Position numbers and translations under genes: made by a program. The notes beneath the pieces were generated by a model. The model did not search any database. It saw only the letters and a program-made list of their open reading frames with translations, and was not told the DNA's origin. A DNA stretch of 64,000 nt from a bacterium (GTDB lineage Bacteria > Patescibacteriota > Minisyncoccia > Phycocordibacterales > UBA5272), in the NCBI GenBank assembly GCA_043771335.1, contig JAYVHM010000001.1:92901-156900 (forward strand), read 5' to 3'. This document shows positions 6,738 to 56,709 of the stretch, one piece after another. Position 1 is the stretch's first letter. Each line of letters opens with the position of its first letter.

Positions 6738-9332
6738 TTATTTATTTTTCAAGACTTTCTTCAAATACTTTCCAGTATGCGAGTTTTTATTATTAGCTAC
6801 GTCCTCTGGAGTGCCGTGAGCTACCAAGTTACCACCACCGACTCCACCCTCTGGTCCTATGTCCATGATATAGTCTGCGTTTTTTATAATATCAAGATTA
6901 TGCTCGATAAGCACTACAGTATTACCTTTGTCTACTAATTTATTTAAAATCTCTATAAGCTTTGCAATATCATCATAATGCAGTCCTATAGACGGCTCAT
7001 CTAAAAGATATATAGTTTTTTCTACGTGTGGTCTGTAAAGTTCTGAAGAAATTTTAACTCTTTGAGCCTCTCCTCCTGATAATGTGGTCGCACTTTGGCC
7101 AAGTTTTAAATATCCAAGACCTACGTCATTCATACTTTTAATACGATCATGTATCGCTGGTATATCCTCAAAAAAAGTTAAGGCCTCTTCTACTGTTAGC
7201 TCTAATATTTCATAAATATTTTTCCCTTTCCATTTTACTTCGAGAGTCTCCTTCATGAATCTCTTACCATTACAAACATCACAAGTCACATATACTGTTG
7301 GCAGGAAATGCATCTCCACAGCTATCTCACCATTACCGTCACATGCCTCACAGCGACCACCAGGAACATTAAAAGAGAATCGGCCAGCTTTCCACCCACG
7401 TAGTCTCGCCTCCTCTGTCTCACAGAAAATATCACGTATATGACCCCATGCTCCGGTATAAGTTGCTGGATTAGACCTTGGTGTTCTACCTATTGCAGAC
7501 TGATCTATTAAAACTAAACGTGATAAATATTCAGAGCCGGTAAAACTTTCACAGTTAAATGTCTTTGCACTTCTCTGTCTTTTTTCTAATCTAGCTTCTA
7601 GATTTCTATTTATTACTTCATACATAAGAGTAGACTTTCCAGATCCAGAGACACCAGTAATCACACTCATAACTTTTAGTGGGACTTTTACATCCATATT
7701 TTTAATATTAAAAGCATTCGCACCTTTTATTATTAATTCACCATGTTTTTCACGTCTATTTTTGCTATAAGGTATAGACACCTCACCACGAAGATAAGCA
7801 AGTGTTCTTGATTTTGATTTATTAGTTTTTGCAGTGAGCAAGTCTTCTAGATAATCAGCAACTATAACCTGACCACCATGCACTCCTGCCGCTGGACCAA
7901 TCTCAACCATAAAATCGCTGGCAAAAATAGTGTCTTCATCATGCTCAACCACGATAATAGTATTACCCATATCACGTAGCTCAGTTAAAGTTTTTATCAA
8001 TCTATCATTGTCTCTCTGATGTAAGCCAATAGTCGGCTCATCCAATACATATAATGCACCCACTAACTTACTTCCGAGTTGTGAAGCGAGTCTTATTCTC
8101 TGTGCTTCACCACCCGATAGGGTGTCGGCACGCCTGTTAAGTTGCAAATAATTAAGTCCCACATTCAACATAAAAACTAATCTACTTTGTATCTCAGAAA
8201 TTACCACTTTTGCTATTTCTTTTTCTTTGTCAGTTAGATTTAAATTATCAAAATATTTTCTAGCATCCTCAATAGACAAGTCAGTAACATCTACTATATT
8301 TATCTTGTTCTCATCATCAAGAAAAACATTGAGCGCTTCTTTTCTTAGTCTCTTTCCATTACAATCTTCACATGGGTCCAGTGCTCCCATGTACTTTACA
8401 CCGAGACCATTACAAGACACACATGCCCCATAAGGTGAGTTAAAAGAAAATAATCTCGGCTCTATCTCAGGAAAAGAAAATCCACAATTAGCACAAGAAA
8501 ACTTATTGCTCATAATATTTTTCTCACCAAGTATGTCGAACTCTACCAGACCGTCACTCTCTGTTACTGCGCGCTCTACTGCTTCATTTAACCTCATTAA
8601 GGCATCTTTGTTCTTATCTTTTAACTTAAACTCATCTATTGCTATCTCATCTACTATTAGTGATATTTCATGTTTTTTATTTTTATCCATTTCTATTCTC
8701 TCACGCAGACTTTTTCTCTCACCATCAATCATAATCTCAGTGTAACCTTTTCCTAAAAAGTCGTACAACATCTGATAATGCTCACCTTTTCTGCCACGTA
8801 TTATAGGAGAAAGTATCACTACATTTTTATGAGAAAACTCTACCCCCATCACAGACTTTTTTATATCTTCGTATTTTACTTTTTTGATTTTCTCTAATAC
8901 AAAGTTGATAATCTCTTCATTACTTAATCTCTGTATTTTACTTCCACAGTCCACACAGTATGGCTTGCCGACACGAGCATACAAAACTCTCAAGTAGTCA
9001 TATATCTCAGTGATGGTCGCAACTGTCGAGCGGGGATTTCTGCCTGCTGATTTCTGATCTATTGATATTGCTGGTGACAGGCCGACTATCTCATCTACGT
9101 CAGGCTTTTGCATTTGATTTAAAAATTGTCTAGCATAAGCGCTCAGACTCTCTACATACCTCCTCTGACCTTCAGCAAAAATAGTATCAAAAGCAAGTGA
9201 AGATTTTCCGCTACCAGAAAGGCCAGTAAAAACAATCATTTTATTCCTTGGCAATTCTACTGTTATATTTTTTAGATTATGTGTGCGGGCACCACGAACT
9301 ATTATCTTTTCTATTTCTTTACTCTTACTCAT
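6738..9332 (-). CDS. uvrA: Excinuclease ABC subunit A
   Basis: Two ABC modules ([23 protein letters not shown] x2) and Zn-finger Cys pairs. Start at MSKSKEIEK; the MLYNLY N-terminus in the track comes from reading through the promoter -10. Confidence 0.9.
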
Positions 9333-9405
9333 ATTTAGCTTTTTCTTATATAGATTATACAACAAAAAAGACTAATTCACAATACAAAAAATGAGTACAA
9401 ATAAT

Positions 9406-9433
9406 TTGCTTTATTCTATATTATTGCTATAAT
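9406..9433 (+). promoter_or_regulatory. Sigma70-like promoter (TTGCTT-16-TATAAT); ATG 7 nt downstream, so a leaderless transcript
   Basis: TTGCTT at 9406..9411 and TATAAT at 9428..9433; ATG at 9441. Confidence 0.45.
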
Positions 9434-9440
9434 TAGTATT

Positions 9441-9728
9441 ATGTCATTAGAAAAAATAGGTGCATTCACTGAAAACTTAGCAAAATCAATATTTGGAAAG
9501 ACTTTGGAGAGAAAAGATATCTATGAAGCTGGTAATAGCTTTGTAAATAATACGACTAAGAAAAGATTCGTAGTAACTGGAACATTTAATGGTGTAGTAG
9601 AATATGTAGAATTAGACTTAAAAGATCACTTTGAATTTAAAGCCATGGATTTTGTAAGCATAGAAAAAAATAAAACTCCTATGGAGAATTTTGAAAAAAC
9701 GCTCTTAGATCTTGGTTATCAATTATAA
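9441..9728 (+). CDS. Hypothetical small protein (95 aa)
   Basis: Clean ORF with its own promoter and terminator. Confidence 0.4.
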   Translation: MSLEKIGAFTENLAKSIFGKTLERKDIYEAGNSFVNNTTKKRFVVTGTFNGVVEYVELDLKDHFEFKAMDFVSIEKNKTPMENFEKTLLDLGYQL

Positions 9729-9738
9729 TCACTAAAAT

Positions 9739-9780
9739 AAAATAGCGGCGCCTTCGGCGCCGCTATTTTATTTTGTTTTA
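9739..9780 (+). terminator. Rho-independent terminator (AAAATAGCGGCGCC-ttcg-GGCGCCGCTATTTT plus T-run)
   Basis: 14-bp stem, ttcg tetraloop, followed by tttattttg. Confidence 0.75.
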
Positions 9781-9834
9781 AAAGCCTATATAATTACTAA
9801 AGCTGAAACAAAATAATCCTAAAAAATATTTAGA

Positions 9835-10491
9835 TTATTTTACATCAACTGATTTTAATATATCAGATACTTCAGCATTATTTACTGTCGCACTTTCTAC
9901 ATATATTAACCAATCTTTGTTAGTGGCAGTTTTAAGATGCCATTCTGTAGCACCGCTCTCTGCTCTGGTCCATACAGATGATCCGTAATCAGCATTAGCA
10001 GGTGCACTGATATTTGGCACTGATTTTTTAATAGTCTCAGTAACATACTCCTCAGGAGTAGCACCACGTGCACCATTAAAATAAAAATACACAGTCGCAA
10101 CTTTTTCTCCTTTTGCATTATTTACAGTATAAAGATTTGCAGTTTTAGCAGAAGTCGTGACACTGTTCACATCGCTGTAATCAAAAGTAGCTTCTGCATT
10201 ATTATCTCCTTCAAAATTATGTTTTAAAGAAGTGTCAAAAGTCGTAAGGACAGCATTAGTGGTCGTGCTCATGCTATTTTCTATTTTTATGTTAGACATT
10301 TTAGATCTTTTCATAAGGTGCAATGCTCCCTTAGCAATAGCATAACCAAGAGCGAGCCCAAGGACAGCATATAATGCAAGTGATGCATACATTTTCAAAT
10401 TTTTCTTTTCTAAAAGATTCTTAGAATTAGAATTATTATTGTTATTATTATTATTGTTGTTATTATTTGACATATGTTTTAGTGTGTACAC
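9835..10491 (-). CDS. Membrane-anchored or secreted hypothetical protein with an N-terminal poly-Asn tract
   Basis: N13 run followed by TM/signal helix MYASLALYAVLGLALGYAIA. The true start may be the internal Met at about 10392. Confidence 0.4.
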   Translation of the reverse strand: MYTLKHMSNNNNNNNNNNNNSNSKNLLEKKNLKMYASLALYAVLGLALGYAIAKGALHLMKRSKMSNIKIENSMSTTTNAVLTTFDTSLKHNFEGDNNAEATFDYSDVNSVTTSAKTANLYTVNNAKGEKVATVYFYFNGARGATPEEYVTETIKKSVPNISAPANADYGSSVWTRAESGATEWHLKTATNKDWLIYVESATVNNAEVSDILKSVDVK

Positions 10492-10602
10492 ACTGATCAG
10501 ATTACTATGGCTGATCTAATACATATTATATCAAATATTTACTTCAGTTAGTATATTGACAAAGTTTATTTTTATATCAAATATAATAATTATATAAAAT
10601 AA

Positions 10603-10632
10603 AAACACTAGATTTAATTAAAAGTCTAGTGT
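10603..10632 (-). terminator. Hairpin terminator downstream of the ndk-like gene
   Basis: AACACTAGA-12nt-TCTAGTGTT followed by a T-run on the minus strand. Confidence 0.5.
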
Positions 10633-10668
10633 TGATTTCACTTTTTATTTAGAAGTAATCCCTTTAAA

Positions 10669-11436
10669 TTACTTTGTTTTACTCATTTCTTTCATTAATC
10701 GTTTTAAAGAGTCTTGTTTTTCTGGAAAAAACTTATCAGCGATTTTACGGCCTAGGAATACAGATATTTCACGATGTACTTCATCTGGACTGTCGCTGCA
10801 GTGACATACATTACGTATCGCTCGTGGTCCACCATCTTCTGTCCAGGCTAACTCAAAAGAATCTATCGAATATTTCCCTCGCACACTCTCTGAGGCTGCG
10901 TATTCTGGCTCAATATTTCCTAAAAATTTTCTAGCCAAAGTAAAAGTAAGATCCTCTGAAGAGTTAACGGAAAAAATAATAGCATACATGTCACCGCTAC
11001 TCATATATTCTACGAGTGCTTCTGGTATGTTATTTTTTATTTGTAAACCAATCCAGTCAGGAACGTCTTCTGGCTTAACAGATCCTAACGTAGGACGAAG
11101 GTCTCCACGTTTTTTATTGATACATGTAGCGACTATCTTCTTTCCATATTTTGTTAACCAGTCATCTGACTTGTCATAAAAACTAGCTAATCCATAAGGT
11201 TTAGTCTCGGCAGCTTTTCCTTTTTTTATGACTTTAGAAAAAAGAACTTTTACTTTTAATCCATTGTCAGTAAATCCTTTCAAAAACATTTCCTCTATTT
11301 CTTTGTGATGACGCATGCCGTCTGGTTTTACTAACACAAAGAAGAGTGTGTCTTTTTTAGGAATATTTACTGAGGCTGTTTCGGAAACTAGTCTTGTGAC
11401 TGGTTTTTTTGCTGGTGGTCTTTTTTTAGTTACCAT
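10669..11436 (-). CDS. ndk: Nucleoside diphosphate kinase with a ~90-aa internal insertion and a basic N-terminal tail
   Basis: FFVLVKPDG, LVEYMSSGDMYAIIFS and NVCHCSDSPDEVHREISVFL align with NDK motifs, including the catalytic His; 255 aa versus about 140. Confidence 0.65.
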   Translation of the reverse strand: MVTKKRPPAKKPVTRLVSETASVNIPKKDTLFFVLVKPDGMRHHKEIEEMFLKGFTDNGLKVKVLFSKVIKKGKAAETKPYGLASFYDKSDDWLTKYGKKIVATCINKKRGDLRPTLGSVKPEDVPDWIGLQIKNNIPEALVEYMSSGDMYAIIFSVNSSEDLTFTLARKFLGNIEPEYAASESVRGKYSIDSFELAWTEDGGPRAIRNVCHCSDSPDEVHREISVFLGRKIADKFFPEKQDSLKRLMKEMSKTK

Positions 11437-11518
11437 TTAACTTTCTCCTTTAAAAAAACAACGTAACAAAATAGTTACTATGCTAAAATACTAACATAAA
11501 AAATAAATCAAAGCAAAT

Positions 11519-13579
11519 CTAATCTTTTTTCTCTTCTGATAATTTATCTCTCAAATATTTTATCTCATCCCTGAGTATCGCTGCCGTCTCAAAGTCTAAT
11601 GCCTTCACAGCTTCTTTCATTTGTTTTTCTTTTAAGGTGATTAATTTATTTGGATTCTTTGCAAATATCTTTTTATCTTTTTCCAAGTCACTATTGATTA
11701 ATTTTGCTCTATCTTTTTTAATATCATCGGTAATATCATGTATTCTCTTTTTAATAGTCTCTGGGGTAATACTATGTTTTATATTATAATCTAGCTGTAT
11801 GGTCCTCCTTCTCTCTGTCTCAGCCATCGCACGCTCCATACTACCTGTAATACTATCAGCATACAGTATTACTCTACCATTAACATTACGCGCGGCACGT
11901 CCTATGGTTTGTATTAACGAAGTGTCGCTCCTAAGGAACCCCTCCTTGTCTGCATCAAGTATCCCGATGAGTGTCACCTCAGGCAGATCTAGTCCTTCAC
12001 GGAGAAGGTTAACACCAACCAGAACATCGAATTCACCTTTTCTAAGAGCTGTTAATATTTCTATACGCTCCATAGTGAGCACTCCACTGTGTACGTATTT
12101 TGCTTTCAATCCTTTTGTGATTAAATACTCTGAGAGAGATTCTGCCATTTTCTTAGTGAGTGTAGTTGCCAATACCCTACCTCCACCCTTTATTTCTTTT
12201 TCACATTCATTTATAAAATCATGAACTTGACCCGGGTAATCTTTCTTCTTTTCTTTTGTATCGTCTTTTTTAAGCTCACGCACAGGACGCACTTCTAGCA
12301 CCGGATCTATTAATCCTGTTGGTCTGATTATCTGCTCTACTATTTCTCCTCCGAATTCTCTTTCATATTTTCCTGGTGTAGCACTGACATATATTGTCTG
12401 TCCTGCCCTCTCTTCGAATTCTACATATTTGAGTGGTCTATTATCTTTTGCACTGGGTAGACGAAAACCAAAGTCAACAAGAGTCTGTTTACGACTTTGG
12501 TCACCGGCATACATAGCATTCAGCTGAGGCAGTGTAACATGTGACTCATCTATAACTGTTAAAAATTCTGGCTTACCATCTGCATCATGAGGAAAATAAC
12601 TCATCAGTGTCTCTGGCGCTTCGCCTGGCATTTTACCTGACAATATGCGTGAATAGTTCTCAATACCAGAACAAAAACCAATTTCTTTTATCATAGCCAC
12701 ATCATATGTTGTTCTTCTCTTCAATCTATCTGCTTCTAATATTTTTTTATCAGCATCAAAATCTTTTAACCTTTCTGCTAGCTCATGCTTTATCTCTTCC
12801 ACAGCCCTCTCTCTCGTATTTTCATCACTAATAAAATGTTTCGCTGGGAAAATGAAATAATCCTCTACAACTTTTATCTCACGCATAGATACTGGATCCG
12901 TCACGCTTAGTCTACTTATTTTATTATTTGCAAATTCTATTTGCAACATTACTGTCTCAGATATAGCCATAATGTCTATTCTATTTCCAACAGCACGAAA
13001 AGTTCCAGGTGATAGGTCGGCATTGGTGCGCTCATAATGTATAGCTATGAACTTTAACATTAGCTCTGTCTTATTCGTCTCATCACCTACTTGTAATCTA
13101 ATATTTACTTTTTCATATTCTTTTGGAGATCCTAAACCGTAAATACAAGATACAGAGGCACAGATTATCACGTCACTTCTAGTTAATAATGCCTGAGTAC
13201 TAGCATGTCTTAGTCTATCTATCTCTTCGTTGATACTTGCATCCTTTTCTATATATGTGTCTGTTGTTGGTATATATGCTTCTGGCTGATAATAATCATA
13301 GTAAGATACAAAATAATGCACAGCAGCATCAGGGAAAAATTCTCGAAACTCTTGAGCTAACTGAGCAGCGAGTGTCTTATTGTGAGCAATAACAAGTGTT
13401 GGCTTTTGTATTTGCTGTATAACATTTGCAATAGTAAAAGTCTTACCTGTTCCTGTGGCTCCAAGCAATGTAGTTTTTTGCTTTCCTTCATTTACATTCT
13501 TAACCAAAGCCGAAATGGCCTTTGGCTGATCTCCAGCAGGCGTAAACCCTTTTATATTGAATCTATTTTTCTGATACAT
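11519..13579 (-). CDS. uvrB: Excinuclease ABC subunit B
   Basis: GDQPKAI..LLGATGTGKTF Walker A, helicase motifs, and C-terminal UVR domain (FETAAILRDEIKYLR). Confidence 0.9.
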   Translation of the reverse strand: MYQKNRFNIKGFTPAGDQPKAISALVKNVNEGKQKTTLLGATGTGKTFTIANVIQQIQKPTLVIAHNKTLAAQLAQEFREFFPDAAVHYFVSYYDYYQPEAYIPTTDTYIEKDASINEEIDRLRHASTQALLTRSDVIICASVSCIYGLGSPKEYEKVNIRLQVGDETNKTELMLKFIAIHYERTNADLSPGTFRAVGNRIDIMAISETVMLQIEFANNKISRLSVTDPVSMREIKVVEDYFIFPAKHFISDENTRERAVEEIKHELAERLKDFDADKKILEADRLKRRTTYDVAMIKEIGFCSGIENYSRILSGKMPGEAPETLMSYFPHDADGKPEFLTVIDESHVTLPQLNAMYAGDQSRKQTLVDFGFRLPSAKDNRPLKYVEFEERAGQTIYVSATPGKYEREFGGEIVEQIIRPTGLIDPVLEVRPVRELKKDDTKEKKKDYPGQVHDFINECEKEIKGGGRVLATTLTKKMAESLSEYLITKGLKAKYVHSGVLTMERIEILTALRKGEFDVLVGVNLLREGLDLPEVTLIGILDADKEGFLRSDTSLIQTIGRAARNVNGRVILYADSITGSMERAMAETERRRTIQLDYNIKHSITPETIKKRIHDITDDIKKDRAKLINSDLEKDKKIFAKNPNKLITLKEKQMKEAVKALDFETAAILRDEIKYLRDKLSEEKKD

Positions 13580-13624
13580 AAACTTTTAAATCTAAAATTT
13601 GCAAGATAAGTTATTTAATGTCAA

Positions 13625-14725
13625 TTATAGCATATATCTCACCCCATTTCTATCAATAAAAACTTTTAATTCTTTATTTATTTTTATTTCTTTTTTGCAA
13701 GACTCTTGTTTTTCACCTTCTTCTTTTAGACTTTCTAAATTATTTTCACAGTCTTTTTTAAAAGTAATATCTAAAACTTTCCCATTTTGAACATCAGTAG
13801 AAAACCACTGATCAAAAATATAATTACCAAGTGAGTAGTAAATATTTTTATCTTTATAAATTTCTGATTCCTGCACTACATGCGGATGTGAGCCTATCAC
13901 CATGTCAGCTCCAGCATCTATCCAGGCGTGAGCCAGATCTTTTTGTTTCTGATTTGAAAGCTTATCATACTCCACCCCCCAGTGTGGCATCACGATGACA
14001 AAGTCTATAAATTTGTCTTGATTTTTTATTCTCTTTATTTCTTCATTTATGATTTCTCCGGAGACTTTCGTAGTGAACTGATTATATCCGATATATGCTA
14101 TACATATTTCTTTCTCACATACCACTTCTGAGAGACTTTCTTTTTCAAAATTATCTTTATTTATATTTAAATTGTTATTGTATGGATTACCAAAGTATTT
14201 GATGTCTCCAGCAGCCAAGAACTTTTTTGTATCTTCATACCCAGCATGAAAAAAATTATCCGTGTGATTATTTGCAAGACTTACTACTTTTATATTTAGA
14301 AATTTTAGTATCTCTACGCTACTAATGGGGAAAGTGAAAAATAGATCTTTACCATAAGTCCCATCTTCATTTAGACTTTTACTTTTGTTCTCTGTTATCG
14401 GACCTTCGAGATTTGCCATCACATAGTCATATTCATTATTTATCTCCCTTAGATTATTTAAATAATTATTAACAAAATTTTCTGCTGAGCCATATCTGTT
14501 TATCTGCTTCCTGATATATCTATCTAGCATGATGTCACCTGAAAACAAAACATTTAATTCAAATTTTTCTATTTTTCTCTCTATTTTGTTTTCGTTTATA
14601 TTATCACTTATGTATGAGATATTATTTTTACTTAAATTATACTTATAAAGTAAGACCAAAATACCTATAAACCCTAAAATTAAAACTGTAAGATATTTAT
14701 TTTTTGTTTTCATATAATATTTCAA
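13625..14725 (-). CDS. CapA/PGA_cap-family metallophosphoesterase with N-terminal TM anchor
   Basis: LANNHTDNF, MPHWGVEY and SLGNYIFDQ motifs of the calcineurin-like CapA family. Confidence 0.6.
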   Translation of the reverse strand: MKYYMKTKNKYLTVLILGFIGILVLLYKYNLSKNNISYISDNINENKIERKIEKFELNVLFSGDIMLDRYIRKQINRYGSAENFVNNYLNNLREINNEYDYVMANLEGPITENKSKSLNEDGTYGKDLFFTFPISSVEILKFLNIKVVSLANNHTDNFFHAGYEDTKKFLAAGDIKYFGNPYNNNLNINKDNFEKESLSEVVCEKEICIAYIGYNQFTTKVSGEIINEEIKRIKNQDKFIDFVIVMPHWGVEYDKLSNQKQKDLAHAWIDAGADMVIGSHPHVVQESEIYKDKNIYYSLGNYIFDQWFSTDVQNGKVLDITFKKDCENNLESLKEEGEKQESCKKEIKINKELKVFIDRNGVRYML

Positions 14726-15365
14726 GACTAATCAAGTAATGATCCATGTGTCTAATTTTGTCTTTTATTATTTTTGGATTTTTGCTTTCTAGGTCCTTAC
14801 TTATGAATATCTTATCTAGTGGTAGGAACATTCTAGTTGTATGATTCGAAAATCTAAAAGTGTCTATGAAATCTTCTAAGAATAGAAGATATGATTTTTT
14901 ATCTAATTTAGAAGAAAAATATTTATTAAAAATCCAAAGATTGGTGTCACCTAAAATTATACTTTTCTTACTAGTGAAATCTTTTAATAAACTTTTAATT
15001 TCTAACAATCTCCTTCGTGGTGAAAAAGCATCCAAGTGTATAGGCAAGAAGTTAATACTATTGATAATAAAATAATTATTGAGAGGGTGCTCTACTTCTA
15101 CAAATGGGTATTTACTTAGTAATAATATTTTAGATATTCTATTTTCTGTGTTGATGATTCTGTGGTAAATTAGTTCTGGAAATGCATTTATAATTTTTCC
15201 TATGTCTTCTGTCATTAACTCTTGCAGAAATATAATATCTGCATTTTCTTTTTTTATTATCTCTTGGATTTTATCTAGATTCTCAACTTGAAAACACTGG
15301 TGCTTTCTACCAGGAAAATGTTTTAACCATATAAAGCTACCAATATTCCAAGAGATTATTTTCAT
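14697..15365 (-). CDS. Endonuclease/exonuclease/phosphatase (EEP) family protein
   Basis: SWNIGS, IIFLQEL, GDTN and HMDHYLISLE motifs; overlaps the CapA gene by 29 nt. Confidence 0.55.
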   Translation of the reverse strand: MKIISWNIGSFIWLKHFPGRKHQCFQVENLDKIQEIIKKENADIIFLQELMTEDIGKIINAFPELIYHRIINTENRISKILLLSKYPFVEVEHPLNNYFIINSINFLPIHLDAFSPRRRLLEIKSLLKDFTSKKSIILGDTNLWIFNKYFSSKLDKKSYLLFLEDFIDTFRFSNHTTRMFLPLDKIFISKDLESKNPKIIKDKIRHMDHYLISLEILYENKK

Positions 15366-15396
15366 GCTTCTAATTATTTACTTCTTTATTTTTATA

Positions 15397-15738
15397 TTAT
15401 AGCACCTCCACCTTTATCTCTAAAATTTCTTCTGGCCAGATGTTGGCTTTGTTTCTAATTTGTTTTTTAATTGGCAATATATAATTCTCATCTTTTTTAT
15501 TCCTAAAAAGTGAAGTATCCCAAATCACTGACTCCTCTTTTTTATTTTTCTTATTTATTATAAAAACTTTTTCTCCATTAGCATGAATTATATTAACTCT
15601 AACTTTTACCATTGCAGATTTTGGATAACTCTCTCTTATTATTTTTGACAGCTCCTTATCGAGACTAACAAAATGCCATCCCATATCCCCCGGCCACACC
15701 CACATCTTTGCTTTAAAAGTAATACTTTTATTTTGCAT
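15397..15738 (-). CDS. DUF1905-like small protein
   Basis: FKAKMWVWPGDMGWHFVSLDKELS N-terminal pattern typical of DUF1905/YdeI-like proteins. Confidence 0.45.
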   Translation of the reverse strand: MQNKSITFKAKMWVWPGDMGWHFVSLDKELSKIIRESYPKSAMVKVRVNIIHANGEKVFIINKKNKKEESVIWDTSLFRNKKDENYILPIKKQIRNKANIWPEEILEIKVEVL

Positions 15739-16354
15739 AAATTAGTCGACTACCCCAATTACTCTTTAGATTTTCTTTAGAAAAAATAGCCTCAGCTTTG
15801 GTGTCAAAATATTGCTTTAGTTCAACCTCTAATTGTGAATAATCATAGTGACTTTGCCACTTCTTAAGAGCTATTTCATTTCTTACGCTATAAAAATCCT
15901 CGAGCAGTTCATTAAAGTCAACCATACAACATCTGCCGTCTTTAGCTAGTCCACAGTTAATAGAAAAGTTATAGACATTGTCATGGTAGCCCAATTGCCA
16001 CAAAGTTACACACATTTCAAAATAAGAATCCAAAAAGTTTTTTGATTTCTCTATAGATAAATTTTTAAAACCATCTCCAAAAATAAGAACTTTATCCTGC
16101 TCATAGTCTGTATCATTCAGAAATATAGGATTTCCCAAAATCTCTAGTGGTATTGTTCGTAATATTTTTCCATAATACTCTTTGGCTATTTTTTTAAAAT
16201 TAAGAATCTTAATAAAAGGTTTTAAAAATTGAAAACCTTCTGATTTCGAAAGATCAAAGACTGTTTCAAAATAATTTTTTTTAAAAACTTTCAAAACCCT
16301 ATCTTCATCTATTTGATAAACTTTATAACTATACCCTTCTCCAATCTTTTTCAT
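15728..16354 (-). CDS. Small protein-kinase-like fold protein
   Basis: Gly-rich loop plus Lys (IGEGYSYKVY..VLKVFKK), HDN catalytic-loop-like and MVDFNEL (DFG-like). Start moved to MKKIGEG because the MCYNVA N-terminus is the promoter read-through. Confidence 0.4.
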   Translation of the reverse strand: MKKIGEGYSYKVYQIDEDRVLKVFKKNYFETVFDLSKSEGFQFLKPFIKILNFKKIAKEYYGKILRTIPLEILGNPIFLNDTDYEQDKVLIFGDGFKNLSIEKSKNFLDSYFEMCVTLWQLGYHDNVYNFSINCGLAKDGRCCMVDFNELLEDFYSVRNEIALKKWQSHYDYSQLEVELKQYFDTKAEAIFSKENLKSNWGSRLIYAK

Positions 16355-16360
16355 GGCTAC

Positions 16361-16371
16361 ATTATAACACA
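16361..16371 (-). promoter_or_regulatory. Extended -10 promoter TGTGTTATAAT, 6 nt before ATG (leaderless)
   Basis: Reverse complement of attataacaca, immediately after the tgt stop; ATG at 16354. Confidence 0.45.
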
Positions 16372-16372
16372 A

Positions 16373-17644
16373 TTAAATCTTTGATTTATAATACCTCTCG
16401 CAGAATTCCTTTTTGTAATTTAGGAAGTTGTCATCTAGTATAGACTGGCGGATGTTTTCTACGAGCTTGATCAAAAAGTGCAGATTGTGAGCGCTGGCGA
16501 TAGTCGCCGCTAACATCTCCTCAGCACGGAAAAGGTGACAAAGATAGGCTTTTGTGTATTTGTTTGCTGGGCAGTCTATATCATCACACACAGGACTCAT
16601 ATCGTTTTTAAATTTTGCATTAGTAATATTTAACTTACCATCATAGCTGTGCACACTACCGTGTCTCGCTATGCGAGTTGGTGACACGCAGTCAAAAGTA
16701 TCGATTCCATACTCAACACCCAAGAAAAAGTCTACTGGCTCACCGATACCGAGTAGGTGGCGTGGTTTACCTTCTGGGAGATTCTCAGTCGCACTCTTTA
16801 CGGTTTTGCCCATGTCTTCCTTTGTAAAGCTTCCTCCGATGCCAAAGCCGTCAAAATCCATCGCACCTAGAGTCTCTGCACTCTCTTTGCGCAGATCTTC
16901 AAATGCACCGCCTTGTACCACTGCAAATAATGCTTGCTGCTCAGCTGTTGCACTGCTCACCCCGAGTCTTTTGTGCTCATCTATACACCTCTTTGCCCAT
17001 CTGTGCGTACGATCCATAGCAGATATCTGATATTCACGACTAGCAAGTGGTGAAGTACACTCATCGAATGCAAAAAATATATCAGCGCCTAGATCATGCT
17101 GTATCTGCATGCTAGTCTCAGGAGTGAATCTATGGTACGAGCCATCGATAAAAGATTTGAAAGTTACTCCTTCTTCATCTATCTTTGCCATTTGGTTTTT
17201 GCTAGATTTTATTTTCACTTTTCCTTCATCGTCTGTAGTTTGTTTTTGTTTTGCACTGAGCTGAGCACTGGTGGCTATCTTTGACACACCAGTATCAAAG
17301 GCAGCTCCGAGTGAAAACACTTGGAATCCTCCCGAGTCAGTCACAGTAGGCAAAACTCGCCCACTATCGTCCACCCAGTTCATCATCTTACCAAAGCCTC
17401 CGTGATTTTTTACTAGCTCACTTCCTGGCTGAAGATATAGATGATAAGTATTTGCCAGCACTGCTTGTCCTCCGATATTTTTCACGTCTTCTACGCTGAG
17501 CGCCTTCACTGTGGCCTTTGTACCCACAGGGATAAATGCAGGAGTGAGTATATCACCATGCGGCGTATGTATCACCCCAGCTCTAGCCAAACTCACCTCA
17601 CTACTTCTCTTTTCTATTTCAAAATTAAATTTTTTATTTTGCAT
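16373..17644 (-). CDS. tgt: Queuine tRNA-ribosyltransferase
   Basis: AGVIHTPHGDILTPAFIPVGT, LLGIGEP and C-terminal Zn site (CxCxxC..H); contains a Lys-rich insertion. Confidence 0.9.
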   Translation of the reverse strand: MQNKKFNFEIEKRSSEVSLARAGVIHTPHGDILTPAFIPVGTKATVKALSVEDVKNIGGQAVLANTYHLYLQPGSELVKNHGGFGKMMNWVDDSGRVLPTVTDSGGFQVFSLGAAFDTGVSKIATSAQLSAKQKQTTDDEGKVKIKSSKNQMAKIDEEGVTFKSFIDGSYHRFTPETSMQIQHDLGADIFFAFDECTSPLASREYQISAMDRTHRWAKRCIDEHKRLGVSSATAEQQALFAVVQGGAFEDLRKESAETLGAMDFDGFGIGGSFTKEDMGKTVKSATENLPEGKPRHLLGIGEPVDFFLGVEYGIDTFDCVSPTRIARHGSVHSYDGKLNITNAKFKNDMSPVCDDIDCPANKYTKAYLCHLFRAEEMLAATIASAHNLHFLIKLVENIRQSILDDNFLNYKKEFCERYYKSKI

Positions 17645-17650
17645 ATATTT

Positions 17651-18028
17651 TTACTTCTTCTGTCCATCTTTATAATCTACCCATTCTAAAAATAAACCTT
17701 TTTCAAAACCACCCCTAATCTCTTTCTTTTTATCTCGCATTTTTAAAACTTCCTCCAGAGATATGTCATTATGAAAAAGTATGGCATCAATAACTTCTAT
17801 TAAGTCTCCCAACTCCTCTTTTAAGTGAGTCTTATCTTCTTCATCATACGCCTCCATAACTTCCTTTGTCTCTTCGAAGACTTTAGCTTTTAAACTTTCT
17901 AATATCTCTTCTTTGTTTATATATTTAAAAGAAACAGCATTGTGAACCTCTCCTTTTATTTTATCTGCATCCCAGATGTCAGTCATTTTATCCCTAACCA
18001 ATTTATTGTATATTACTTTATTTGACAT
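17651..18028 (-). CDS. MazG-like nucleotide pyrophosphohydrolase domain protein
   Basis: EETKEVMEA...EELGDLIEVIDAI helical EExxE/D motif pattern. Confidence 0.5.
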   Translation of the reverse strand: MSNKVIYNKLVRDKMTDIWDADKIKGEVHNAVSFKYINKEEILESLKAKVFEETKEVMEAYDEEDKTHLKEELGDLIEVIDAILFHNDISLEEVLKMRDKKKEIRGGFEKGLFLEWVDYKDGQKK

Positions 18029-18032
18029 ATTC

Positions 18033-18308
18033 TTATTTACTTAAAAACCAGTAATTTAAAATACCAAAAGTTATTATAGTAATTTCAAAAACTGTAGTGA
18101 CAAATCCTCCTACCTGATTTGCTTTTTTCCATCCATGATATGTTACGTACAACCAAAGAGTCTGCGCAAAAAATGCTACAACCAATCCATACTCTGGATG
18201 TTTTATAGAAGTTAAAAGCCAGCTAACAACAGCAACTATCGGCAATGCTATTTGTATAAACTTGTCAAAAAAATTATGCTTATCTTTGTGTATCTGTATA
18301 TGCTTCAT
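18033..18308 (-). CDS. Small membrane protein (2-3 TM)
   Basis: 91 aa, hydrophobic. Confidence 0.3.
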   Translation of the reverse strand: MKHIQIHKDKHNFFDKFIQIALPIVAVVSWLLTSIKHPEYGLVVAFFAQTLWLYVTYHGWKKANQVGGFVTTVFEITIITFGILNYWFLSK

Positions 18309-19671: not shown

Positions 19672-19680
19672 ATTATAACA
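19672..19680 (-). promoter_or_regulatory. Extended -10 promoter TGTTATAAT, 6 nt before the bcp ATG (leaderless)
   Basis: Reverse complement of attataaca at 19672..19680; ATG at 19665. Confidence 0.45.
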
Positions 19681-23519: not shown

Positions 23520-24830
23520 TTAAATAACTTTCAAATCCTTAAACACAGTCTCATATAATACAAAAGCTTTTCTGGCTTCTCGGCTGGTTAACTGAAAACT
23601 AAGACCTTCATGAGCTATTCTATTTCTTATTTTATGTGCCTCCCAAGCAAAATCTATAGTTTTAAAATTAGCCGATTGCAACCTCTCTCCAACACCAGAC
23701 CCTAAGTATCCAATATTTTTAAGTGCTTCATCTAAGATGTTGTCAGCCTCTATAATACCAATTCTCCATAAATCAGACACTTCGTCATTCATATATTTTG
23801 AGACGATGCCCCACCTCATATCACCTTCAAATACAAGTTCCTTAACTGTAGGCTCGAATATACCAGTGGTGCTTATGGGGTTATTATTTTCATACTTTAT
23901 ATCGTGATTAATATGATTCACCTCATCGTCTTTTGTATTATATTTTATATCTGCTTTTATATTTTTAAAATTTTCTTTATGAACTGTTTTATTATGAACA
24001 TGATCAGTGTCATGATGATTAAAACCAAAAGCGTTATGAAAAAGATGATAATAATGCTCTACATCATGATTGATCTGTGCCCACCAACGTAAAAATACAT
24101 AAGTAAAAAGAAAAAACATTATAATACTTAGCATGAGAACTATACTGGCAACAAAATCTAAAAAATTATTTTGTATAGAAAACTTTAAATCTTTACTGTT
24201 AGCATTCACTAGGGTCTGTGATTTTAATTTTGAGCTCTCTCTGTAATTAACTTTTACATTATCATCAACAGCGTCAGAAAGTCCATCATTGTCTGTATCT
24301 TTTAAGTGTGGATTAGAACCTATATAAGCCTCAAATCTGTCGCCTATGCCGTCTCCATCAGAATCTATATCATTCTCTAAAACACTACGACTACTATCTG
24401 TAGGGTAAGCATCACGACCGTCTAATACACCATCCTTGTCTTGATCTGCATTAACAGCATTCAACCCTTTGTATATTTCTTCTCCATCATAAATACCATC
24501 TTCATCTGTATCTGTGCTGTTTATATTCGTACCATGTTTTAACTCATAACTGTCTGGCACACCATCTGAATCAGTGTCAGTTGGTGATAGACCAAAAAAT
24601 TCTTTTACCTTATCAGAAAAGCTATAATCAGAACCAAAAACCTCCCTTGTCTCTGCATCTGTAAAGTTATTAAAATCTTTTGGCTTAGCGTCAAAAATAT
24701 CAAAGATACTATCTCCGTCAGAATCTTTTTTTGTATTAACACCTAAGCTAGACAAAAAATCATTTATATATTTTGTATAATCTATATTATCCACTAATAC
24801 ATTATAACAGTTGTATGTCTTTTCCGACAC
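23520..24830 (-). CDS. Membrane protein with thrombospondin-type-3-like Ca-binding repeats, a His-rich segment and a C-terminal HEPN-like domain
   Basis: Five or more DxDxDGxxD motifs (DTDSDGVPD, DTDEDGIYD, DQDKDGVLD, DIDSDGDGIGD, DTDNDGLSD). Single TM (FVASIVLMLSIIMFFLFTYVFL), His-rich HYYHLFHNAFGFNHHDTDHVHN, and C-terminal AWEAHKIRNRIAHEG (R-x4-H). Confidence 0.45.
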   Translation of the reverse strand: MSEKTYNCYNVLVDNIDYTKYINDFLSSLGVNTKKDSDGDSIFDIFDAKPKDFNNFTDAETREVFGSDYSFSDKVKEFFGLSPTDTDSDGVPDSYELKHGTNINSTDTDEDGIYDGEEIYKGLNAVNADQDKDGVLDGRDAYPTDSSRSVLENDIDSDGDGIGDRFEAYIGSNPHLKDTDNDGLSDAVDDNVKVNYRESSKLKSQTLVNANSKDLKFSIQNNFLDFVASIVLMLSIIMFFLFTYVFLRWWAQINHDVEHYYHLFHNAFGFNHHDTDHVHNKTVHKENFKNIKADIKYNTKDDEVNHINHDIKYENNNPISTTGIFEPTVKELVFEGDMRWGIVSKYMNDEVSDLWRIGIIEADNILDEALKNIGYLGSGVGERLQSANFKTIDFAWEAHKIRNRIAHEGLSFQLTSREARKAFVLYETVFKDLKVI

Positions 24831-56698: not shown

Positions 56699-56709
56699 AT
56701 TATAACACA
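56699..56709 (-). promoter_or_regulatory. Extended -10 promoter TGTGTTATAAT, 6 nt before the tsaE ATG (leaderless)
   Basis: Reverse complement of attataacaca; ATG at 56692. Confidence 0.45.

Follow-up and report, generated by a model that had tools for sequence, protein, structure and literature searches.

The four closely spaced genes that separate tgt from uvrB in a patescibacterial genome are probably not one functional unit and include a predicted kinase-like protein of an unnamed family

Background

Four co-directional open reading frames (ORFs) occupy positions 13625-16372, on the minus strand, of a 64,000-nucleotide stretch of patescibacterial DNA (contig JAYVHM010000001.1 of assembly GCA_043771335.1, positions 92,901 to 156,900; hereafter the window), where they are flanked by tgt and uvrB. 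They code for a kinase-like protein, a DUF1905 protein, a protein of the endonuclease/exonuclease/phosphatase (EEP) superfamily and a CapA-type metallophosphoesterase. An earlier note on this DNA had described four tightly packed genes on one strand between tgt and uvrB and had taken them for one coupled module. The list of ORFs with their translations confirms the arrangement, and the question raised by this locus is whether such an arrangement reflects a common function. In our view, to which we give a probability of roughly three in four, the region has the ordinary organisation of a compact genome coded mostly on one strand, and the four genes do not constitute a single functional unit. 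The four-gene module is unsupported because the genes accrete independently in relatives, because an internal promoter-like element, which is also found in relatives, splits the stretch, because the products are predicted to be located in different compartments, and because CapA belongs to the conserved backbone of the region rather than to an insert.

Gene order in related genomes

The genes that follow tgt in the window and in its relatives are given in Table 1. Judged from these gene orders, TGT...CapA...UvrB...UvrA is a stable backbone and the TGT-CapA junction is a variable slot, with tgt directly upstream of it in every related locus. The slot was found to contain nothing, a DUF1653 gene, an EEP gene or a DUF1905 gene together with an EEP gene, and the combination of kinase-like, DUF1905 and EEP genes was seen only here. 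The proposal that a four-gene cassette had been inserted between tgt and uvrB thus fails on CapA, which is part of the backbone.

Table 1. Order of the genes following tgt in the window and in related loci.
Locus	tgt identity	Gene order
Window	100%	TGT-kinase-like-DUF1905-EEP-CapA-UvrB-NDK-...-UvrA
L013	90%	TGT-DUF1905-EEP-CapA, then contig end
L043	85%	TGT-EEP-CapA-(105 aa)-UvrB-...-NDK-...-UvrA
L014/L015	82-84%	TGT-DUF1905-EEP-CapA, then contig end
L040	75%	TGT-CapA-UvrB-...-UvrA; TGT-CapA gap 1 nt
L041/L042	49-66%	TGT-DUF1653-CapA-(90 aa, L041 only)-UvrB-...-UvrA

Within the slot, the kinase-like gene is present only in L001-L004, which are identical in all proteins compared and represent one species; L001, a 211-kb metagenome scaffold, is the exact contig of the window. 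Because the two nearest relatives lack this gene, parsimony points to its gain in the window lineage. Orthologues of the DUF1905 gene are placed directly after tgt in L013 (54% identity) and in L014/L015 (68% identity), and the gene was not found in L043 or L040-L042. CapA is present without EEP in L040-L042. In the reading that we favour, the slot would have gained its accessory genes stepwise, from none to EEP, then to DUF1905 and EEP, and finally, in the window lineage, to these two and the kinase-like gene.

Homologues of the kinase-like, EEP and CapA proteins were also examined for conserved neighbourhoods, and they co-occur only in a few close relatives that share the wider synteny; in the loci examined, no co-occurrence of the component families was found beyond the shared local gene order, which speaks against the coupled module on a ground that the earlier note had itself set. 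Ten further loci with a member of the kinase-like family were compared (L005 and L016-L024, the latter nine belonging to Saccharibacteria, to Paceibacterota or to a single bacterial assembly without classification), and in their flanking DNA, up to 8 kb to the left and right, none of tgt, DUF1905, EEP and CapA has a match. For uvrB there is a single match near them, in L017, and it is at chance level (25% identity over 72 amino acids, E 0.009), and an all-against-all comparison of the neighbours at the ten loci revealed no shared family. Similarly, EEP homologues at 42-52% identity (L009/10, L011/12, L025 and L026) have no DUF1905 or CapA gene nearby, and a CapA homologue at 39% identity lies in a wholly different gene context.

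The backbone order, which spans 6738-17644 in the window, is kept in L040-L043, where CapA is at least 52% identical, and is lost at 39% identity. It persists in L041/L042 even though the genes upstream of tgt are completely different there (RNR, RpiB, Rpe and transketolase). CapA, a membrane metallophosphoesterase, keeps its place there between a gene for tRNA modification and genes for nucleotide excision repair. The DUF1653 gene lies near tgt in the distant relatives, within the TGT-CapA slot in L041 (5760-5969) and L042 (5758-5976) and just upstream of tgt in L040 (4431-4661).

Gene packing and transcription signals

The window is 93% coding, and 61 of its 66 called genes are on the minus strand. 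Among its 58 same-strand junctions, 10 are overlaps and 29 measure 31 nucleotides or less, with a median gap of 34 nucleotides. Two of the junctions reported earlier for the four-gene stretch, an 11-nucleotide overlap of the kinase-like and DUF1905 genes and a 31-nucleotide gap between the DUF1905 and EEP genes, were found as described, but the reported 29-nucleotide overlap was not, since the EEP and CapA genes overlap by 17 nucleotides when CapA starts at the ATG at 14713. The tgt gene is separated from the kinase-like gene by 18 nucleotides and CapA from uvrB by 45 nucleotides; other overlaps in the window are of 17, 19, 29 and 41 nucleotides. The packing of the four genes is therefore not above the background of the genome. 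The CapA start at 14713 is the one given by gene callers and relatives (362 amino acids), and that of the kinase-like gene, the ATG at 16354, corresponds to the methionine of MKKIGEGY, at which 84 of 86 homologues begin (208 amino acids). The TTG codons at 16372 (kinase-like gene) and 14725 (CapA) merely represent the longest possible ORF readings.

The extended -10 motif TGnTATAAT occurs 27 times in the window, compared to 8.1 +/- 3.0 expected copies (3.3-fold enrichment), and no shuffle reached 27. Of its 21 minus-strand copies, 13 are located within 80 nucleotides upstream of minus-strand gene starts, a zone that makes up 7.6% of the window. The enrichment and the position upstream of starts make this motif a credible promoter signal in the genome. 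Three copies, P1 to P3, concern the stretch and its junction with uvrB (Table 2).

Table 2. Coordinates of the genes and promoter-like elements of the region.
Feature	Positions	Strand	Evidence and remarks
tgt, tRNA-guanine transglycosylase	16373..17644	-	Pfam TGT 2.9e-130; TIGR00430 433.9 bits vs cut-off 306.75; upstream backbone anchor
P1, extended -10 TGTTATAAT	16361..16369	-	shortly after the tgt stop codon; ATG 16354 follows at 6 nt, leaderless spacing
Kinase-like protein gene, 208 aa	15728..16354	-	fold from AlphaFold2 and Foldseek; homologue-supported ATG start
DUF1905 gene, 113 aa	15397..15738	-	Pfam DUF1905 2e-13, 50.6 bits vs cut-off 24
P2, extended -10 TGCTATAAT	15396..15404	-	overlaps the DUF1905 stop codon; EEP starts 30 nt downstream
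EEP phosphoesterase/nuclease gene, minimal, 222 aa	14697..15365	-	Pfam Exo_endo_phos 1.5e-13; predicted cytoplasmic
CapA/PGA_cap metallophosphoesterase gene, 362 aa	13625..14713	-	Pfam PGA_cap 1.1e-48; N-terminal membrane anchor
P3, extended -10 TGCTATAAT	13624..13632	-	overlaps the CapA stop codon; uvrB starts 44 nt downstream
uvrB	11519..13579	-	translation and Pfam UvrB domains; 70-87% identical orthologues after CapA in L040-L043; downstream backbone anchor

The leaderless promoter that had been placed at the end of tgt is plausible, given the enrichment of the motif and its concentration upstream of gene starts. No Shine-Dalgarno sequence lies between P1 and the ATG at 16354. The 6-nucleotide spacing between the -10 element and the ATG was found at three starts, 16354, 19665 and 56692 (the latter two with elements at 19672-19680 and 56699-56707, minus strand), and suggests that leaderless mRNAs occur in this genome. 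That members of the kinase-like family generally have leaderless promoters was considered and rejected, since the spacing was found at the window locus only. The called starts at 24830, 28671 and 42184 sit on TGnTATAAT motifs and may be mis-called.

Coupling of the four genes by a single promoter, as proposed earlier, is made less likely by P2, a second promoter-like element between the DUF1905 and EEP genes that is also present in relatives: TGnTATAAT lies directly upstream of EEP also in L013, L014 and L043. P3 has a counterpart after CapA in L040 and L043, and a generic promoter scan independently found both P2 and P3, each with the TG extension. No convincing terminator was detected in the stretch. 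Across the region scanned, terminator-like sites are about as frequent as expected from shuffled sequence, and both of those found on the minus strand of the stretch fall inside coding sequence. From these signals we infer at least two transcription units, followed by that of uvrB. The leaderless-type promoter at the end of tgt would read the kinase-like and DUF1905 genes, the second extended -10 promoter, also present in relatives, would read EEP and CapA, and the third would read uvrB.

The kinase-like protein

As a single sequence, the kinase-like protein has no Pfam or NCBIfam match at E<=0.1 and no sequence match in the PDB. An exhaustive HMMER search of its family yielded 540 cluster representatives (clusters at 50% identity) at E<=1e-3 and 386 at E<=1e-10, and most among the 150 matches listed are ~200-215 amino acids long. 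An AlphaFold2 model built from an 86-sequence alignment has a mean predicted local distance difference test score (pLDDT) of 94.9 and a predicted TM-score of 0.89; it supersedes an unusable model (pLDDT 40) made from a 3-sequence alignment. In a Foldseek search of the PDB with this model, the top matches are all kinases. AceK, the isocitrate dehydrogenase kinase/phosphatase, is first, with an E value of 1.1e-4 and a TMq of 0.56 (TMq and TMt being the TM-scores normalised to query and target, respectively), and further matches include the UbiB/ABC1-like proteins MSMEG_1954 and Rv3197, Rio2, eukaryotic-type protein kinases, APH(2''), WbdD and Lpg2603. A search of the viral models of BFVD likewise returned kinases only. 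The kinase fold, which the earlier note had called from the motifs Gly-loop, VLKVFKK, HDN and DFN, all present in the sequence, is thus borne out: the model confirms a bilobal protein kinase-like (PKL) fold, with an N-lobe made of a beta-sheet and a helix and a helical C-lobe.

The residues expected of an active site are strongly conserved in the 86-sequence alignment. In the glycine-rich loop, G5 and G7 are found in 74 and 84 of the 86 sequences, respectively, and V12 is found in 82. The beta3 lysine K22 is present in all 86 and V20 in 85, and the hinge shows Q86 (86/86) and D87 (82/86). The catalytic loop contains an acidic residue at D/E125 (85/86) and N133 (81/86), and the Mg-binding columns of the "DFG" type contain D146 (85/86) and E149 (81/86), the window protein reading DFNE. 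D125 may be the catalytic base, and by the sequence its distance from the asparagine is atypical, with a spacing of 8 residues compared to the usual 5; no conserved alphaC glutamate stands out in the family. The structural and sequence features expected of the PKL superfamily are found, namely the bilobal fold, the glycine-rich loop and beta3 lysine, the acidic residue and asparagine of the catalytic loop, and the Mg-binding aspartate. The protein appears to keep all ATP- and Mg-binding residues and is probably an ATP-binding enzyme.

The relationship to named kinases is distant. Eleven of the 86 members have sub-threshold matches to the Pfam AceK_kinase family, the best with an E value of 3.3e-5, and no other Pfam match recurs. 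The family member P0097 reaches 26.6 bits against the AceK family PF06315, below the cut-off of 29.3. The family profile aligns weakly with residues 401-482 of AceK, as it does with the N-lobe of SteC, and by positions counted from the alignment it places N133 and D146 on N462 and D475 of AceK in its published numbering. The window protein itself has no match to PF06315 and, with its 208 amino acids, no extra domain, and was not assigned to that family. AceK is its best structural match (E 1e-4), but the sequence identity is 11-14%, and whereas AceK has ~570 amino acids with a regulatory domain and a substrate-recognition loop, the kinase-like protein is a bare core with a single long helix of 40 residues (28-67). 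Nothing points to isocitrate dehydrogenase as its substrate. The literature provided nothing usable on AceK in the candidate phyla radiation.

The bilobal fold, the glycine-rich loop, the beta3 lysine and the Mg-binding asparagine and aspartate are also shared with Rio2, the UbiB/ABC1-like proteins MSMEG_1954 and Rv3197, and APH(2'') (Foldseek E values from 1e-3 to 2e-4), and a phage ABC1-like protein of 210 amino acids is a match of similar size (TMq/TMt 0.49/0.48). However, the kinase-like protein has no sequence-profile match to these families, and the 25 Pfam families that most of the 86 relatives match do not include Bud32, RIO, Kdo kinase or APH. The earlier candidates, Bud32, RIO, Kdo and aminoglycoside kinases, are therefore not retained, Rio2 and APH being distant structural matches only. 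By its sequence, the protein is placed in an unnamed family of ~208 residues within the known PKL superfamily, seen in Patescibacteria assemblies. We only tentatively go further and consider, as a possibility that falls short of being probable, that the family, as modelled, may be an undescribed minimal kinase family of ~205-215 amino acids, distantly AceK-like and with a full ATP/Mg site, and that it may be among the smallest catalytically competent kinase cores.

A Kyte-Doolittle scan detected no hydrophobic segment in the protein, and among the family members that are longer or have two domains, none carries a fused Pfam domain that is informative. Two members, P0017 (476 amino acids) and P0062 (463 amino acids), are of double length with two matched stretches each, and are apparent tandem duplications. 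The copy in L023 (7992-8621) is read as two ORFs; it may be a pseudogene, or an error of assembly or a frameshift may be at fault.

The DUF1905, EEP and CapA proteins

The assignments that had been proposed for these three proteins (DUF1905, EEP and membrane-anchored CapA) were supported by Pfam matches (Table 2) and, for CapA, by a hydrophobic anchor. The EEP protein scores 51.4 bits against Exo_endo_phos (cut-off 24.5) and covers profile positions 1-211 of 225, nearly the full length. Its residues N7, E49, H110, D140, N142, D184, D208 and H209 are invariant in 8 orthologues. On this basis it can be assigned to the EEP superfamily (PF03372), and it is probably a small cytoplasmic phosphoesterase or nuclease with a complete set of catalytic residues. 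It keeps the canonical catalytic residues of the exonuclease III/APE1 type (N7, E49, D140/N142, D184 and D208/H209) but is unusually short and fails the cut-offs of the xth equivalogs (TIGR00633, 20.4 vs 99.05 bits; TIGR00195, 13 vs 182.55 bits). No PDB match was found, either by sequence or by alignment profile, and the protein has no hydrophobic or signal segment. A metagenome scan with the EEP alignment returned two close relatives only, on short contigs, and distant ExoIII-like matches.

CapA matches the Pfam family PGA_cap (PF09587) over its full length with 166.4 bits (cut-off 27) and contains the metallophosphatase-type motifs GD, NNH, HWG and GSHPH. Among the four proteins, it is the only one with a hydrophobic anchor, a single N-terminal segment (residues 7-25, Kyte-Doolittle 2.0) with lysines before it. 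This pattern points to a type II orientation, in which the catalytic domain would face the outside of the cytoplasmic membrane. CapA homologues are numerous (4724 matches at E<=1e-20), and the relatives of both CapA and the kinase-like protein are found in assemblies that bear the labels Paceibacterota, Parcubacteria, Saccharibacteria, Moranbacteria or "Patescibacteria group", which points to a Patescibacteria (CPR) genome, probably a Paceibacterota-like one. Matches to structures of the epimerase MslH are weak (6e-6), and the MslH equivalog gives 40.8 bits compared to a cut-off of 700. The PGA_cap match and the N-terminal anchor are shared with CapA/PgsA of the poly-gamma-glutamate complex. 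In contrast to PgsBCA/CapBCA, the window CapA is syntenic with tgt and uvrB, and neither PgsB (Mur-ligase-like) nor PgsC was among the called genes within ~10 kb on either side in L001 or among those of L040-L043, in a search limited to these loci. The literature provided nothing usable on CapA in Patescibacteria or on DUF1905.

In the reading that we favour, the proteins would act independently, the kinase-like and EEP proteins in the cytoplasm and CapA anchored in the membrane, and we consider such independence probable for each of the four.

Alternative readings

The EEP and CapA genes could form a genuine two-gene operon, acting for example on a phosphoester-linked envelope or nucleotide substrate, with the two other genes as passengers. 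In all four EEP-carrying genomes (window, L013, L014/L015, L043), CapA directly follows EEP, with the 17-nucleotide overlap in the window and in L013, and the promoter-like element precedes EEP in every case. This adjacency is, however, confined to genomes that also share the surrounding gene order, CapA does without EEP in the L040-L042 loci just as the EEP orthologues at 42-52% identity do without CapA, and the two products are predicted to be in different compartments, the one without signal or membrane segment, the other anchored with its catalytic domain probably outside. We therefore regard such an operon as unlikely. The constant pairing of EEP and CapA nevertheless weighs against the independence of the four genes and makes a functional link between these two inside the clade a minor possibility. 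Other points on the same side are that the direction of change, gain and not loss, comes from parsimony over few genomes; that the sampling of neighbourhoods was modest (~10 kinase-like, ~8 distinct EEP and 6 CapA loci, local neighbourhoods only); and that the promoters are motif predictions, and transcription that begins at tgt or P1 may run on through all four genes, given that no convincing terminator was detected.

If the tgt-capA junction were an accessory or defence hotspot, the kinase-like, DUF1905 and EEP genes might be a cryptic anti-phage or stress cassette. The number of genes in the slot of close relatives ranges from 0 to 3, its contents comprise an enzyme of a nuclease superfamily and a protein with a kinase fold, two types that are common in defence systems, and the kinase-like family is patchy, with no fixed neighbourhood. 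Yet none of the four proteins matched any of the 5027 PADLOC models (PADLOC-DB 2.0, E<=0.01), which also speaks against the cryptic defence cassette of the earlier note, and the slot shows no sign of an integrase, a transposase, a tRNA or a flanking repeat. Moreover, the three genes appear to have been gained separately and not as a unit, their GC content is not anomalous, and in the loci examined elsewhere the kinase-like family is never beside EEP or DUF1905. This explanation seems highly improbable to us. We give even less credence to a reading raised in the earlier note, in which one operon of all four genes would serve the turnover of second messengers or nucleotides. All four genes run in one direction, with short junctions and no convincing internal terminator, and the chemistry of the four proteins could all touch phosphoesters, but the complete set is found only in the window species, relatives carry each gene in the absence of the others and also have the promoter-like element inside the stretch, and the packing is that of the genome at large.

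Other features of the region

The genes nearby are a housekeeping mix that includes GatC, an amidase-family protein, a class II aminoacyl-tRNA synthetase, TerC, FolB, AhpC, MGMT, MazG, TGT, UvrB, NDK, UvrA and CysS; the amidase-family gene is probably gatA. The GC content of the four genes (26-31%, window mean 32.7%) resembles that of other small accessory genes of the window, and a compositional island was rejected on this ground. Rfam detected nothing within the four-gene stretch and only three tRNAs, elsewhere in the window, and an RNA element in the stretch was rejected accordingly.

Between MGMT and tgt, the window contains a MazG-like pyrophosphohydrolase gene (125 amino acids) and a gene for a hydrophobic or membrane protein of 91 amino acids (17651-18308). 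Both are missing in L013 and L014/L015, where MGMT adjoins TGT, and this difference indicates a turnover of small genes in the neighbourhood. The NDK-like protein (255 amino acids; 10669-11436, minus strand) matches only positions 58-131 of the 135 of Pfam NDK, has a long lysine-rich N-terminal region and is an atypical nucleoside diphosphate kinase; its counterpart in L043 is 33% identical.

Conclusions

In compact one-strand genomes, short gaps and overlaps are uninformative on shared function, and the conservation of the neighbourhood must be checked. The sole novel element of the stretch is the kinase-like protein, which, with its high-confidence model and its 86-sequence alignment, could be curated as a new family. 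Should the substrate that it phosphorylates be an enzyme of metabolism or a factor of host interaction, this protein would represent a new regulatory device in reduced epibiotic bacteria, and the tgt-capA junction would then be a small hotspot at which accessory genes of this kind accrete.

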